DNA of 19,313 nucleotides from a bacterium (GCA_040390065.1 JAZJZE010000031.1:1-19313); one strand, 5' to 3'. Shown: positions 1 through 5,582, counted from the first letter of the stretch. Notes: generated from the sequence alone by a model not told the origin. Made by a program: numbers and translations.

Positions 1-389
1 TGAAAGCCGCCACGACGTCCCACGCATAAGCCGACGTCGCCTAACCCGGTAGGGCTACGGCCAAGCAAGCTTGGCCGCAGCCGCGCCGTCCGGCTGCGCC
101 GGCCGGCGGGGCAGCGGTCTTGAAAGCCGCCACGACGTCCCACGCATAAGCCGACGTCGCCTAACCCGGTAGGGCTACGGCCAAGCAAGCTTGGCCGCAG
201 CCGCGCCGTCCGGCTGCGCCGGCCGGCGGGGCAGCGGTCTTGAAAGCCGCCACGACGTCCCACGCATAAGCCGACGTCGCCTAACCCGGTAGGGCTACGG
301 CCAAGCAAGCTTGGCCGCAGCCGCGCCGTCCGGCTGCGCCGGCCGGCGGGGCAGCGGTCTTGAAAGCCGCCACGACGTCCCACGCATAA
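1..389 (+). repeat. Exact 120-bp tandem array of tRNA-Ser 5'-half-derived units (full units start at 30, 150, 270; partial unit 1-29; may continue left of the window)
   Basis: Lines 1-120, 121-240 and 241-360 are identical. Unit = tRNA nt GCCGACGTCGCCTAACCCGGTAGGGC (26) + 57-nt insert + AGCGGTCTTGAAAGCCGCC anticodon arm (19) + 18-nt tail ACGACGTCCCACGCATAA. Confidence 0.97.
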
Positions 390-473
390 GCCGACGTCGC
401 CTAACCCGGTAGGGCAGCGGTCTTGAAAACCGCCGCGCGCGAGCGTTTCCAGGTTCAAATCCTGGCGTCGGCG
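390..473 (+). tRNA. tRNA-Ser (anticodon UGA), long variable arm, no encoded CCA
   Basis: Acceptor GCCGACG (390-396)/CGTCGGC (466-472), discriminator G473. D-arm GCCT-AACCCGGTA-GGGC. Anticodon arm GCGGT-CT TGA AA-ACCGC (TGA at 424-426). Variable arm CGCGCGCGAGCGTTT. T-arm CCAGG-TTCAAAT-CCTGG. Confidence 0.95.
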
Positions 474-572
474 TCGCTTGCTTTCATCTACCCGGGGATC
501 GTCAACCTTAGATCCAGCGGTTTCGTCCATCCCGCCGTGCTGACTTTCCCCATCAATCCACTGGACCGCGCC

Positions 573-1361
573 ATGGACTGGGACCTTCTCCATCGCTCCG
601 TCGTCAGCATCTTTGATTCGTACCACGCGCCAGAGCAGGACGTCCTTATCGAGGTCATCCAGAATTCCGTCGACGCAATCGAAGAGCGCGCGATTGAAGC
701 CAGCAAGAACAAGGAGAAATTTGTCCCCGAAATCCGCATTAGGATTGACACGGCCAAGAACGCTCTCGAAATCCACGACAACGGCGTTGGCGTGCCGGAA
801 TCCATCCTCCAGCAGTTGGGCTCCCCCCACAACACCAGCAAGAAGTCAGGCCGGCGACGGGGGCATAAGGGGGTGGGCCTGACTTACGTTGCCTGGTCAA
901 CCGAGAAATTTCGCTTTGCGACGAGACATGCGAACTCCAAGCAGCCCTACGCGGGTCTGTTGGCCGGCGCTAGCGACTGGGTACAGGACGGCGGTGGCCC
1001 CTGTCCAGTCATCCGAGAAGACTCCGCGTACGCCAAGGAACTGATTCCTGGCCCGTCCGGGGCATCGTTCTTTTTCCAGTTTCCACCGGCGGCGAGGGTG
1101 CTGAGCACGTTTCGCCGCCTAACCGCCGGCGGTCAGGAAGTCTTCCTTCGGACAAAAACGGCAATCGGCAATGTTGACTTGCCCCATGTGGACGAGAAGG
1201 ATGTAGACGATTGGATTTCTCGCGCGCGAGTTAGTGTGGTTGTTGACAACGGCCTTCCTCAGGAACTTCTTGGCCTTAACGGAGTGCCGCGATGCCTGCA
1301 ACGTGCGCTACTTCGTCGGCAACACGACCCTGCAACTCTCCGGCAAGGCCGTTGGTCGTGA
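573..1361 (+). pseudogene. GHKL (HATPase_c, Hsp90/MORC-like) ATPase, probably 3'-truncated near 1280
   Basis: GHKL motifs EVIQNSVDA, DNGVG and GHKGVG. The real start is probably ATG 573, because the ORF-track start at 423 lies inside the tRNA. Visibly lower GC than the rest of the window. The last ~27 codons read like an off-frame translation of the next ORF. Confidence 0.7.
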
Positions 1362-2704: not shown

Positions 2705-3013
2705 GTGGCCGGCTCCAGGCTCGGCACTCTCTTGCGCTACGGTGAGTCGGAGCTCGACCCTGCCGTCCAGGCTGAGATCCTGCTCGAATCGGCCCGCAAC
2801 GAGGCGCGCGCCGCCATCCTGGAACTGTTGGTCGCGGTGGGCTTCGGCGTCTGGTTCAAGTTCCGGGGCGAGGCGTTCCAGGCCGTCGCAATCTTTGCCA
2901 TCATCACGGTCCTTCCGCTGCTGGTGGACTCGCAGTTGCGCCGCAGTGCCGCGCGTCGCCTGCTCGGGCTGGCACCGCATCCGCCCAAGCCCGTGAAGCG
3001 GCACGAGAACTAG
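2705..3013 (+). CDS. Small membrane protein with two predicted TM helices
   Basis: 102 aa with two hydrophobic stretches. Divergent from the phosphatase. Its TAG overlaps the PIN stop in a CTAG at 3010-3013. Confidence 0.65.
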   Translation: MAGSRLGTLLRYGESELDPAVQAEILLESARNEARAAILELLVAVGFGVWFKFRGEAFQAVAIFAIITVLPLLVDSQLRRSAARRLLGLAPHPPKPVKRHEN

Positions 3014-3417
3014 TCGCTGCGTCCGCCGGAGCCGGCCTTCAGGAAGGCAAGGCGGCCTTGCTGGCGCGCAACGATGACGCGCAGCCCTGATTTCTGGCAC
3101 TCGGCCTGCAGTTTCTTGTCGTTGGTGAGGACGATGCCGCCGAGGCGTCGCGCCACTTCGAGGATGCCGTCGTCGCCCATCCGGCCCGTCGGCTCCGAGG
3201 CGCAGCGCTCCGAGAACTTGACAGCCATCTTGGCGGCGCGGCCGAGTTCGCCCCGGTTCTTCATGAGGTTCTTGAGTTCCGACAGCACGCTCGTCGGCAC
3301 ATGCATGGCGTACGGTGCGTCGAGGAGTTCTTCCAGGAGTTCCTCGAGGCGCGCGCCTTCGGTGAACGGCATGAGGATGGCGTTCGTGTCGAGGACGACG
3401 GGCAGGGGCTGCGTCAT
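3010..3417 (-). CDS. Fcf1/Utp24-like PIN-domain nuclease
   Basis: VVLDTNA, SVLSEL, GDDGI and VLTND acidic PIN motifs. ATGA overlap with the eif2g stop, the usual archaeal context. Confidence 0.9.
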   Translation of the reverse strand: MTQPLPVVLDTNAILMPFTEGARLEELLEELLDAPYAMHVPTSVLSELKNLMKNRGELGRAAKMAVKFSERCASEPTGRMGDDGILEVARRLGGIVLTNDKKLQAECQKSGLRVIVARQQGRLAFLKAGSGGRSD

Positions 3418-4706
3418 GCCTTCAGGACACCGTAGCCGATGAGGCGCCAGCGGCCACCGACGCGGCGGCTGACGGCGATGCGCGAGTCCGCCTCGACGGC
3501 GACGGGCAGTTTCAGGACGGCCTCGACGACGTGGTTGGCCGACTTCAGCACCATGCCGACGGTCGTGGCGGTGCCGACGTTGAGCATGAGGGGCTCCTTC
3601 ACCTTGATGGGCTCCACGGCGGCTTCGTCCTCGGCGCCGACGACGCGGTCCAGGAGTGTGACGTTCATGATCATGCGGTCGACCGTGTTCGGGAGCTTGC
3701 CGACGTGGCCGAGGGCGCGGCCGACGAGGTTGTCCGCCTTCGTGACGCTGGGGTCGAGTTCGGTGCCGACGGCGATGAGGCCGCCCGGTCCCGCGCGTTC
3801 GACTTGCTGGTTGCCGCAGTACAGGGCGACGACCTTGCTGCGTAGCGGCTTGTAGGTGGCCTTGCCGTCTGGCGTCTCGATGCGCAGGCCCGGCGTGACC
3901 TCGATCTCGTCGCCGACCTTGATGGTGCCGCGCGACAACGAGCCGCCCATGACGCCGCCCTTCAGTTTGTCGGGCCGCGTGCCGGGCTTGTTGATGTCGA
4001 AGCTGCGCGCCACGAGCATGACGGGCGCCGATTGCGGGTCGTGCTTCGGCGTCGGGATGGTCTTCTCGATGGCCTCGATGAGGGCCGAGATGTTGACGTC
4101 GTGGTGCGCCGAGATGGGAATGACGGGTGCGTGCTCGGCGACGGTGCCCTTCACGAATGCCTGGATCTCCCTGTAGTTCTCCATGGCGCGCTTCTCGTCG
4201 ACGAGGTCGATCTTGTTCTGCACGATGACGATGTTCTTGGCGCCGGCGATCTGCAGGGCCATGAGGTGTTCGCGCGTCTGCGGCTGCGGGCACTTCTCGT
4301 TCGCAGCCACGAGGAGGAGTGCACCGTCCATGAGGGCTGCACCCGAAAGCATCGTGGCCATCAGCGTCTCGTGGCCAGGGGCATCGACGAAGGAGACGCG
4401 TCGCAGCTTGGTTGCAGCGCCAGAGAGGCGCGCGTCCTCGGCGTGCGTGGTGAACAGGTCGTGGCCGTCCTTGTCCTTGCCCTTGAAGAAGGTCGTGTCC
4501 GCGTAGCCCAGCTTGATGCTGATGCCGCGCTTGATTTCCTCGGAGTGCTCGTCCGTCCACTTGCCGGAGAGCGCCTTCGTCAGCGTCGTCTTGCCGTGGT
4601 CGACGTGGCCGATGAGGCCAATGTTGACCTCGGGCTGCTCGAACGAAGCGGACGACTTCGGGGCCTCCGTCTGGAGGGTCTCGGTCGCCGGCTTCTTTGC
4701 TGCCAC
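3414..4706 (-). CDS. eif2g: Translation initiation factor 2 gamma subunit (aIF2-gamma)
   Basis: QPEVNIGLIGHVDHGKTT, RGISIKLGYA, DAPGHE, NKID and the C-terminal RWRLIGYG. Confidence 0.98.
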   Translation of the reverse strand: MAAKKPATETLQTEAPKSSASFEQPEVNIGLIGHVDHGKTTLTKALSGKWTDEHSEEIKRGISIKLGYADTTFFKGKDKDGHDLFTTHAEDARLSGAATKLRRVSFVDAPGHETLMATMLSGAALMDGALLLVAANEKCPQPQTREHLMALQIAGAKNIVIVQNKIDLVDEKRAMENYREIQAFVKGTVAEHAPVIPISAHHDVNISALIEAIEKTIPTPKHDPQSAPVMLVARSFDINKPGTRPDKLKGGVMGGSLSRGTIKVGDEIEVTPGLRIETPDGKATYKPLRSKVVALYCGNQQVERAGPGGLIAVGTELDPSVTKADNLVGRALGHVGKLPNTVDRMIMNVTLLDRVVGAEDEAAVEPIKVKEPLMLNVGTATTVGMVLKSANHVVEAVLKLPVAVEADSRIAVSRRVGGRWRLIGYGVLKA

Positions 4707-4729
4707 GGCTGCGGCCAGGAAGGGGGCCG

Positions 4730-4736
4730 TTAAAAG
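4730..4736 (-). promoter_or_regulatory. TATA-like box of eif2g (probably a leaderless transcript)
   Basis: CTTTTAA on the minus strand about 25 nt upstream of GTG 4706. Confidence 0.55.
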
Positions 4737-4757
4737 CGTAGGGCGATAGGGGCAGTC

Positions 4758-5582
4758 CTACAGGCTTGCCCCGGTTGGCACGAGGCGGATGCTGCCCTTC
4801 CACGCCTGCACCGGGAAGCGCAGCGCCGCGGTCGACTGGCCACTGCACGACGTGATTGCAAAGGTCTTCGCGATGGGAGCCGTCGCGCCGAACGAGCAGG
4901 ACACGAGAGTCCCTTGGGATGCCGGCTCGTCGACGTTGTAGTCGATGACCGCCGTGCCGTTGGACGTCTGCGTCCAGAAGCGCGCCAGGACCGCACTCTG
5001 TTGGGGGCCGGCCGCGACCAGTTGCAAGGCGTGGATGGGCATGCCACCGCTTTGCGCCGTGGCGTCACCGATGGAGGCGGCCGCCGTGTCCGTGATCTGG
5101 CCGCCGACGGCGAGCGGGCCGCCCGGGACGCCGAACTGTGTGAGCGTCGCCTGCAGCGTCGCGTTGCCGCTGTAGAACGACAATTGGTAGATGTCGAGGG
5201 TCGCAGCCGGGAGTTTGGCGCTGACGTTGGCAATCGTTGGCGGGTGCACGAAGATGCCCTCGAACGCCTCGCCAGCGCCGGCCGGACCGGAACCGCACGA
5301 GACGACGTTGAAGCCCAACGCCGCCTTGCCGGTGGGCGCGGGCAAGCCCAGGAGGTCGGAGGCGTCGCGCCACGTGTAGCCCGGCGGCAGCGCGGCTTGG
5401 ACGGGGGCAGGGTCAACCAGGAGCAGCCCGATCGACTCCGAGCAGCCCGCCTGGTCGTAGGGAATGATGATGGGCATGGGCGGCGGCGCGACGATGGGCC
5501 CGCTGCCGTCGTCCGAGGGCTGGGAGCAGCCTGAAAGAACAAGCATGAGGGCGGATGCAACGAGGAGGAGCCGTAGGGCCAT
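4758..5582 (-). CDS. Putative lipoprotein, unknown function
   Basis: MALRLLLVASALMLVLSGC lipobox, Pro-rich linker, host-like codon usage, T-rich box about 25 nt upstream. Confidence 0.8.
   Translation of the reverse strand: MALRLLLVASALMLVLSGCSQPSDDGSGPIVAPPPMPIIIPYDQAGCSESIGLLLVDPAPVQAALPPGYTWRDASDLLGLPAPTGKAALGFNVVSCGSGPAGAGEAFEGIFVHPPTIANVSAKLPAATLDIYQLSFYSGNATLQATLTQFGVPGGPLAVGGQITDTAAASIGDATAQSGGMPIHALQLVAAGPQQSAVLARFWTQTSNGTAVIDYNVDEPASQGTLVSCSFGATAPIAKTFAITSCSGQSTAALRFPVQAWKGSIRLVPTGASL

Follow-up and report, generated by a model that had tools for sequence, protein, structure and literature searches.

Truncated, hairpin-filled tRNA copies before tRNA-Ser(UGA) and at about half of the tRNA genes of a Thermoplasmatota archaeon

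The stretch of DNA analysed here (GCA_040390065.1 JAZJZE010000031.1:1-19313; 19,313 nt, hereafter the window) is the entire contig C31 of genome G000, an assembly of 50 contigs that is 89 % complete. It opens with 120-bp units made of truncated tRNA copies, which lead in the same register into an intact tRNA-Ser(UGA) gene. This gene, at positions 390-473 (+), was called by both ARAGORN and Rfam (56.6 bits against a gathering score of 29) and is the sole tRNA-Ser(UGA) gene found in the assembly. The nearest records to the electron transfer flavoprotein alpha subunit encoded in the window are metagenome-assembled genomes (MAGs) of Thermoplasmatota archaea, at 68-76 % identity. This affinity gives the locus an archaeal frame, with TATA-type promoters, no encoded CCA, and tRNA genes serving as targets of integrative elements.

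Positions 1-415 of the assembled sequence are reported by Tandem Repeats Finder as 3.5 copies of a 120-bp period with 100 % matches (score 830), and 1-295 is exactly identical to 121-415. Each unit consists of a copy of tRNA positions 1-26, a 57-nt insert, a copy of tRNA positions 27-45 and 18 nt of spacer; in unit 1 (30-149, +) these parts occupy 30-55, 56-112, 113-131 and 132-149, the spacer containing CGACGTC. Units 2 (150-269, +) and 3 (270-389, +) repeat this sequence. Before them lies the 3' end of a further unit (1-29, +), cut by the contig start, of which the last part of the pseudo-anticodon loop and the spacer remain and which is identical to 121-149. The insert (81 % GC) folds as two hairpins, and the copy of positions 27-45 retains UGA with a single A>G change that leaves a U.G pair. 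An earlier note, made from the sequence alone, had placed the 120-bp units at 30, 150 and 270 and the tRNA at 390, with UGA, the A>G change and the 57-nt insert, and for the assembled sequence this reading of the letters is correct. The DNA inserted beyond the copy of positions 1-26 amounts to 94 nt per unit, which leaves no room for a gene, and 63 nt are common to the unit and the start and leader of the intact gene. Inserted DNA is bounded by a direct repeat of a tRNA terminal segment and the intact tRNA is kept, as in an attachment-site duplication.

Since the pseudo-copies lack the variable arm, the T arm and the 3' acceptor strand, they cannot be complete tRNAs, the setting in which an archaeal intron is bounded by a bulge-helix-bulge motif. 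Archaeal tRNA genes can be split or bear introns, as in the halves of Nanoarchaeum and the multi-intron genes of Thermoproteales, and these share with the structures described here interruption at non-canonical positions (21/22, 26/27, T-loop) by structured inserts. Here, however, the interrupted copies are truncated and stand beside an intact, uninterrupted gene, and the stem of one pseudo-copy is broken by a change. A split tRNA, in which a 5' half ends in sequence complementary to the leader of a separately encoded 3' half and the two are joined in trans, was rejected because the intact gene is present and no 3' half of tRNA-Ser(UGA) exists elsewhere in the assembly: beyond this locus the tRNA matches just C1:8-27, with its 5' part, and 16 nt on C10; a multi-intron tRNA was considered and set aside as well. 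When the first 1200 nt of the window were searched against Rfam 15, only tRNAs passed: no family reached its gathering score in the units, the best non-tRNA match being mir-3160 (22.9 bits against 80).

The last unit probably has a role at the intact gene. Over 50 tRNA genes of the genome we found an A+T peak between -32 and -28, the boxes including TTATAT, GTTGAAACC, CCTTGAAGG and TCTCGAAAAG, and similar boxes occur at Arg(CCU), Trp and Gln(CUG). The sole such box at the tRNA-Ser(UGA) locus is the pseudo-anticodon loop of the last unit, TCTTGAAAG, which lies at -32 to -24 (window 358-366, +) and coincides with this peak. From this position we infer that the last unit supplies a TATA-like promoter to the intact tRNA-Ser(UGA) gene.

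Base 1 of the contig already belongs to the array, whose copy number was compared with sequencing depth. Run X1, flagged as the possible source and the only public run holding the stretch, was examined as Logan contigs, and the depths given are mean word depths of these contigs, compared over window 241-900. The tRNA with its unique flank (386-900, in a contig of 4229 nt) has a depth of 14.8, the 67-nt node common to unit and tRNA (349-415) 17.1, and a 113-nt contig holding the unit-unit junction and the whole insert (266-378) 5.85; positions 241-262 are uncovered. Both ends of the 113-nt contig overlap both ends of the shared node, so that the loop closes, which demonstrates that junction and loop exist in the reads. 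These depths amount to about 0.4 loop passes per genome (5.85/14.8), or to 0.16 when calculated from the shared node (17.1/14.8 - 1), whereas three passes would give depths of about 44 for the loop and about 59 for the node. The high GC of the insert might lower its own depth; the GC of the shared node (0.67), however, equals the genome average, so that GC bias is unable to rescue an array of three to four copies. We conclude that, averaged over the population, a genome has fewer than one extra unit, and that 3.5 copies are an overcount by the assembler. Indeed, the periodic part measures 3 x 120 + 55 nt, and the opening 55 nt of the contig are those just before branch point 55|56, which resembles a loop unrolled in a k=55 graph. 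Unit 3 is spanned, at junction 295|296 and over the whole insert, by the X1 contig of depth 5.85, and unit 2 is unsupported by depth as a separate copy. The promoter role proposed above would explain why part of the last unit, included in the shared node at full depth, is present in all genomes of the population.

What stands of the tandem array of at least three units announced in the earlier note is therefore the periodic assembled sequence, the junction and the loop; the copy number does not stand. That note had also pointed to an assembly loop at the contig end as the alternative, which proves right for the number of units and wrong for the junction, as the X1 contig spans it. That assembly alone produced the feature, without any repeat in the organism, is barely credible and already largely refuted. 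The position at a contig end, the perfect identity, the k-mer-like remainder and the low loop depth would all fit such an artefact, but the contig of an independent assembler spans the unit-unit junction with at least 30 nt on each side and closes the loop, two further 5' fragments lie on the end of contig C1, and equivalent structures occur inside long contigs, here and in other MAGs. Other public runs held less of the locus: runs X2-X20 contain only small shares of the stretch (conserved tRNA), run X21 a relative's tRNA with unrelated flanks, and nothing was obtained for the stretch from run X22. Contig breaks fall in or beside tRNA genes elsewhere in the assembly (C11 end / C8 start, C13 end / C17 start and C1 start / C31 start, at Thr(CGU), His and Ser(UGA)), and gaps of N lie inside or at tRNA-linked repeats in two other scaffolds (Leu(UAG) in G000 and Gly(GCC) in G005); evidently, tRNA-linked repeat structures break short-read assemblies.

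The two fragments on contig C1 locate the original start of the gene. The first 20 nt of tRNA-Ser(UGA) match C1 positions 8-27 on the opposite strand and, read in the orientation of the tRNA, the start of C1 consists of unique flank, tRNA 1-12, 53 nt, tRNA 1-20, 7 nt and the contig end. The reverse complement of the C1 flank aligns to the upstream flank of tRNA-Ser(UGA) in three genomes of the same genus, and the 1-12 fragment coincides exactly with the tRNA start in all three. This shows that the outermost fragment is the ancestral 5' end and that the intact gene was displaced rightward by inserted DNA. The 5' fragments lengthen progressively toward the intact gene, from 12 to 20 to 26 nt. 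Furthermore, as shared node and loop are separate contigs, there must be another entry path into the node. Just outside the window (G000:C1:90-200, reverse strand) and likewise at L007, L009 and L012, making four species, some 60 nt of conserved sequence (cgatgaacggcttgggc ... tcatcagcgtagg) lie 20-85 nt upstream of tRNA-Ser(UGA), with a TTCAAGTG-like box about 100 nt upstream; the conserved element may be a small RNA gene or a leader.

Truncated copies are not restricted to this gene. We screened, as the earlier note had proposed, the flanks of every tRNA called by ARAGORN (n=52) for exact same-strand self-matches of at least 14 nt within 1.5 kb, and found partial self-copies at 23 of the 52, against 54 of 2000 random 76-mers serving as control. 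In a cross control, 27 of 2540 pairs of a tRNA with the flanks of tRNAs for a different amino acid shared a match of at least 14 nt, which excludes chance. Upstream copies begin at tRNA position 1-2 in 10 of 16 cases, the remaining six being internal pieces that resume after a hairpin insert or lie behind a mismatch, and 20 of 21 downstream copies end no more than 2 nt from the tRNA 3' end. A relaxed count (up to two mismatches over 17 nt, within 420 nt) gave 3' copies at 18 of the 52 tRNAs, 5' copies at 8 and both at 2; two adjacent tRNA-Tyr calls, one of them itself a truncated gene copy, supply one 5' and one 3' case. Two ARAGORN calls of 96-97 nt, at C5:309585-309680 ('tRNA-Asp') and C13:35430-35526 ('tRNA-???' with a four-base anticodon), are dubious; the former, 16 nt of which are found again at 12 further loci, is probably a repeat and no tRNA.

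Several of these copies are themselves in tandem. A genome-wide run of Tandem Repeats Finder recovered arrays at Ser(CGA) (period 208 bp, 2.2 copies, 99 % identity, positions 1-50 copied), Leu(CAG) (140 bp, 2.1 copies, 99 %, last 19 nt copied), Gly(UCC) (103 bp, 2.2 copies, 97 %, last 19 nt copied) and Gln(CUG) (128 bp, 2.1 copies, 93 %, 3' end copied), all deep in contigs of hundreds of kb. As their copies are not identical and lie inside long contigs, such tRNA arrays are not assembly loops. Many short-period hairpin arrays are also found in the genome away from tRNAs.

The break in upstream (5') modules falls at 26/27 or in one of two loops, D or anticodon, and is followed by hairpin filler and sometimes a resumption of the tRNA before truncation, a series into which the Ser(UGA) unit fits. 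At Gln(UUG), a 17-nt flank leads into tRNA 1-21, hairpins of 64 nt in all, 22-42 bearing one change, a 29-nt stretch that has a TTCATCAAGG box, a repeat of the 17-nt flank, and the gene; at Leu(CAG), the order is 1-33, 62 nt, 38-59, about 77 nt and the gene; at Pro(UGG), a 40-nt promoter and 1-24 come first, then new hairpins over about 120 nt, a second copy of the 40 nt (95 % identical) and the gene. Val(CAC) has a copy of 1-43 with a diverged promoter copy, Leu(CAA) a copy of 1-35 with an unrelated promoter-like box on each side, and Ser(CGA) two copies of 1-50. The filler is made of GC-rich hairpins with CTTCG/CTGCG-type loops. Most of it is unlike the adjacent flank, so simple tandem duplication of contiguous DNA is insufficient to explain it, and parts of it recur in the genome: a 26-nt hairpin at at least 14 sites, and pieces of 83 nt and 39 nt at other loci. 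The 26-nt hairpin (stem cgacctg / caggtcg, then atcattt), a member of an abundant intergenic family of GC hairpins, is found on both strands, often in short tandem arrays (for example C1:22026, C1:105536, C17:93559 and C9:185445).

Downstream (3') modules have their own order of parts. A small hairpin comes first, then a segment that is the reverse complement of where the copied 3' end begins; after a further hairpin and a linker resembling GAGGWATG, a long hairpin leads to the copy itself, which runs from the T-loop to the 3' end. The complementary segment is specific to its tRNA, with an 11/11 match (G.U allowed) in the own downstream flank at 5 of 48 tRNAs against 8 of 2220 cross pairs. Such an anti-T-arm was rejected as a general feature of trailers, being confined to tRNAs with a 3' module, and no corresponding enrichment was found upstream, where a score of at least 10 for an inverted copy of tRNA 1-11 was attained by 11 of 49 own flanks as against 500 of 2348 cross pairs. 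A loose scan for the core motif placed 13 of 192 matches near tRNAs and was abandoned, the motif being too degenerate to use. In polarity the 5' and 3' classes look like mirror images, although the analogy is incomplete: the orientation of loop motifs is strongly concordant downstream (57 versus 23) and weakly biased upstream (23 antisense-type versus 16 sense-type). At tRNA-Glu(CUC), a 57-bp x 3 array lies before the gene and a 131-bp x 2.3 array after its module (G000:C11:195136-195307 and 195510-195804); the latter has module-like motifs, contains no tRNA end, and its unit is conserved in G004.

To place the locus among relatives, we compared 10 orthologous tRNA-Ser(UGA) loci (k = 11), nine from the same genus and one from another genus of the family. 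The tRNA of G004 is identical and has no upstream copy; G005 has upstream copies of 1-34 and 1-13, and G007 a 1-29 copy with a diverged promoter copy; the remaining seven loci have none. Upstream copies are hence present at 2 of the 10 loci, and the two differ in both breakpoint and filler. The Gly(GCC) module was found in 2 of 14 loci, in G000 and its closest relative G004, which have kept the closing-helix strand, the long hairpin and the tRNA-end copy and have diverged in other parts. A census of terminal-type copies in relatives (30 tRNA loci per genome) flagged 5 of 31 tRNAs in G004 (same genus), 4 of 33 in G017 (another genus), 3 of 29 in G026, which belongs to a different family of the order, and none of 31 in G031, a low-GC member of the class. 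One of the four in G017 is truly partial and three are whole-gene tandem duplicates, as at L129 and L144, where Asp(GUC) and Gly(GCC) are duplicated whole at a spacing of 35-200 nt. Together, these counts and the gains and losses show that the structures are lineage-wide, young and quickly turned over, with G000 as the extreme case. The earlier note had made its reading depend on equivalent arrays in relatives; the relatives do repeat the pattern, on different tRNAs and with different breakpoints.

That the modules are functional, either as RNAs (trailers, leaders or decoys for anticodon nucleases) or as decoy attachment sites that divert integrases, is improbable in our view. The 3' modules provide the best case for it. 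Eight of 10 share the same three-way junction fold (z-scores of -1.1 to -6.3), and in 15 of 16 the fold of the tRNA sense strand is the more stable one, with G.U pairs in the closing helix (the sense-minus-antisense difference has a standard deviation of 8.2 kcal/mol in random segments). Between G000 and G004, moreover, not only were parts of the Gly(GCC) module kept, but another hairpin changed its sequence and yet remained a hairpin; and each Ser(UGA) unit has a promoter-like box 24-32 nt before the next copy. On the other hand, the antisense fold is the more stable one in 7 of 7 upstream modules, the Ser(UGA) unit included, species of a single genus differ by gains and losses of modules, the population is mixed in copy number, and a search of six module loci against Rfam returned tRNAs alone. 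The strand bias itself is equally explicable by a transcription-linked mutation bias. A functional role as RNA or decoy is thus possible for the 3' modules and disfavoured for the upstream units. Run X20, an RNA library, holds a contig in which a relative's tRNA runs into a hairpin module; it does not demonstrate transcription of the units. The RNA array, decoys or regulatory leader envisaged in the earlier note consequently find no support, given the depth, the lack of conservation (2/10 loci) and the antisense-favoured folds.

Genuine integrated elements are present in the same genome. An integrase lies 1 kb from the tRNA-Lys(CUU) gene, whose last 17 nt are repeated at a distance of 12.5 kb, and the 12.5-kb DNA between tRNA and copy (G000:C4:105117-117717) is a classical integrated element; for tRNA-Glu(UUC) a 16-nt copy is found at 3.6 kb, and for tRNA-Val(GAC) one of 22 nt adjoining an integrase. 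At Lys(CUU) and Glu(UUC) mini-modules stack with such elements at the same tRNA ends, and at Lys(CUU) a further module lies behind the 12.5-kb element. It could hence be argued that the modules are ordinary attachment-site scars, left when kilobase-sized integrase elements were almost wholly deleted and about 100 nt remained between the copies. The identity blocks of the real elements do resemble those of the mini-modules (T-loop to 3' end), and integration-derived 5'-terminal fragments are described for archaea (PMC3293823). However, this would require about 25 independent deletions all ending at 60-160 nt with a common architecture, and the genuine elements are without module architecture beside their attachment sites. 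The modules are far too short and hold no integrase remnants within or beside them, nor did a Pfam scan of 16 open reading frames (ORFs) of the window reveal an integrase. We therefore regard ordinary scars as very improbable.

The reading that we favour, with about even confidence, is that the locus consists of the stacked scars of repeated insertion with duplication in the 5' part of the tRNA-Ser(UGA) gene. A short GC-rich hairpin DNA, from the family dispersed in intergenic regions, would lodge in the tRNA gene at a loop-coding site, and the segment between the insertion point and the gene end would be duplicated, leaving the complete gene inside and a truncated pseudo-copy outside; the same process may act at the 3' ends of other tRNA genes. 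The 63 nt common to the unit and the start and leader of the gene could then let unequal recombination add or remove units, so that the population would be heterogeneous in unit number, and the units would need no function of their own. A loop depth that is sub-stoichiometric is what is expected of an unstable repeat. Of the ideas put forward in the earlier note, that of a selfish repeat amplifying at tRNA genes comes nearest to the evidence, and needs enlarging in scale, as about half of the tRNA genes are concerned, at both ends and in an archaeal lineage.

A number of observations weigh against repeated insertion. Six tyrosine-recombinase matches are found in the genome, all on contigs other than that of the window and none tied to the modules, and no enzyme was identified in the 89 %-complete assembly, which gave no match for Cas1, Y1 transposase (Y1_Tnp) or reverse transcriptase. 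No whole filler has a second copy, so movement between loci is not demonstrated, and the duplicated segments range from 14 to about 69 nt, whereas known transposases make duplications of fixed length. The inverted copy of the tRNA end in the 3' modules is unexpected for a generic inserted element. A single comparison of filled with empty site, made at Glu(CUC) between G000 and G004, gave identity at 96 of 145 columns of the flanks and at 73 of 126 in the control, and so lends insertion no clear support. Finally, the left junction of the array is unassembled and the entry path into the shared node unseen.

The main rival, which we consider unlikely, is template switching at structured DNA without any dedicated enzyme. 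Here, tRNA genes and GC hairpins would fold in single-stranded DNA and stall the polymerase, errors of replication or repair would arise by template switching or fold-back, and arrays would grow by slippage. Breakpoints at loop-coding positions, 3' modules that repeat one tRNA end in both direct and inverted form, promoter flanks co-duplicated at Pro(UGG), Val(CAC) and Gln(UUG), and the many short-period hairpin arrays distant from tRNAs are all in line with this, as are the lack of a dedicated enzyme and the absence of the pattern from the sole low-GC class member examined. Contrary to what such errors would leave, the ends are exact, with 20 of 21 downstream copies stopping at the tRNA 3' end, and 3' modules of unrelated tRNAs are alike in their stereotyped architecture and motifs. 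In addition, the filler is mostly not contiguous local sequence, and hairpin-to-T-loop junctions lack obvious microhomology.

More tentatively, an undescribed active system of this lineage may place miniature, non-coding hairpin modules in the loop-coding parts of tRNA genes, working at both the 5' and the 3' end with mirrored orientation, regenerating the gene and sometimes providing a new promoter; or the modules may be structured trailer RNAs. Under the former, the 3' module would fold its copy of the tRNA end on the inverted copy into a double-stranded mimic of the target, by analogy with integron attC sites, and would be suited to recombination as a folded single strand.

Known systems share parts of this picture. 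The tRNA-linked repeats of E. coli tyrT are about three units of 178 bp downstream of the gene, each with the tRNA 3' end. As in our genome, a short tandem repeat adjoins a tRNA and its units hold a piece of it, a layout that recurs in the 3' arrays of Leu(CAG) and Gly(UCC), at loci other than Ser(UGA); tyrT, however, is a single bacterial locus with its repeats downstream, whereas the Ser(UGA) array lies upstream and holds the 5' part. We know of no description of loop breakpoints with hairpin filler in tyrT repeats. REP/BIME sequences are short GC-rich intergenic hairpins of bacteria, dispersed and clustered, with a RAYT/Y1 transposase. They resemble our hairpins in being dispersed, clustered and arranged in short-period arrays, and differ in that Y1_Tnp has no match in the present 89 %-complete assembly and that capture of a tRNA terminus is not a feature of REP. 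A retroelement primed by tRNA was set aside too, as the assembly yielded no reverse transcriptase and no encoded complement to CCA was shown.

Casposons offer a further comparison, one of them being inserted at a tRNA 3' end in A. boonei, where a T-arm-coding palindrome guides insertion and a 15-bp duplication overlaps the tRNA by only 5 bp (PMC5137440). The likeness lies in palindrome-guided insertion at the T arm, a long target duplication and the possibility of tandem insertions, and the difference in that casposons are large elements carrying Cas1 (PMC5137440); as this 89 %-complete assembly gave no Cas1 match, the casposon reading was set aside.

The closest precedents are archaeal. In PMC3293823 (Sugahara et al. 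2012), a 5' tRNA fragment upstream of an intact archaeal tRNA-Thr is attributed to integration, at a locus that is heterogeneous in the population. The premise of the earlier note that attachment-site duplications are normally single copies and that upstream 5' copies are without precedent was, in the light of that text, too strong. Integration-derived fragments described there and in PMC9897764 (van der Gulik et al. 2023) enclose inserts of 1.8-23 kb that encode a recombinase. They share with our structures a truncated 3' or 5' terminus beside a regenerated intact gene and the possibility of stacking. Here, in contrast, the inserts are gene-free hairpins of 57-160 nt, at about half of the tRNA genes and often in tandem, and the 3' modules hold an inverted copy of the duplicated end. 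We accordingly class the structures as a miniature form of the known tRNA-gene fragment scars. A full-text literature search, which did not extend to the supplementary fragment tables of PMC9897764 and is not proof of absence, found nothing on hairpin-only modules bounded by tRNA-end copies at such size and frequency.

With regard to the neighbourhood, an ORF with a HATPase_c / HATPase_c_3 domain lies directly downstream of the tRNA (window 423-1361, +), and about 2.5 kb beyond it a 612-aa ORF has a C-terminal PIN_9 domain (window 3010-4848, -). Several large ORFs near these two have no Pfam match, and the neighbourhood could be a defence-type or variable island.

For the analysis of MAGs, the lesson of this locus is to compare a tandem array at a contig end with sequencing depth before giving it a biological reading, 3.5 copies having become here fewer than one extra unit. 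Genes for tRNAs are classic landing sites of mobile DNA, and in archaea they may be interrupted, split or permuted. In this genome about half of them are flanked by hairpin-filled truncated copies that vary between species and within the population, which makes the lineage a natural laboratory for the disruption and repair of tRNA genes, the origins of introns or split genes, and the recruitment of promoters, of which an anticodon loop reused as a TATA-like box would be an example. If an enzyme stands behind the modules, it would represent a new tRNA-directed recombination activity.

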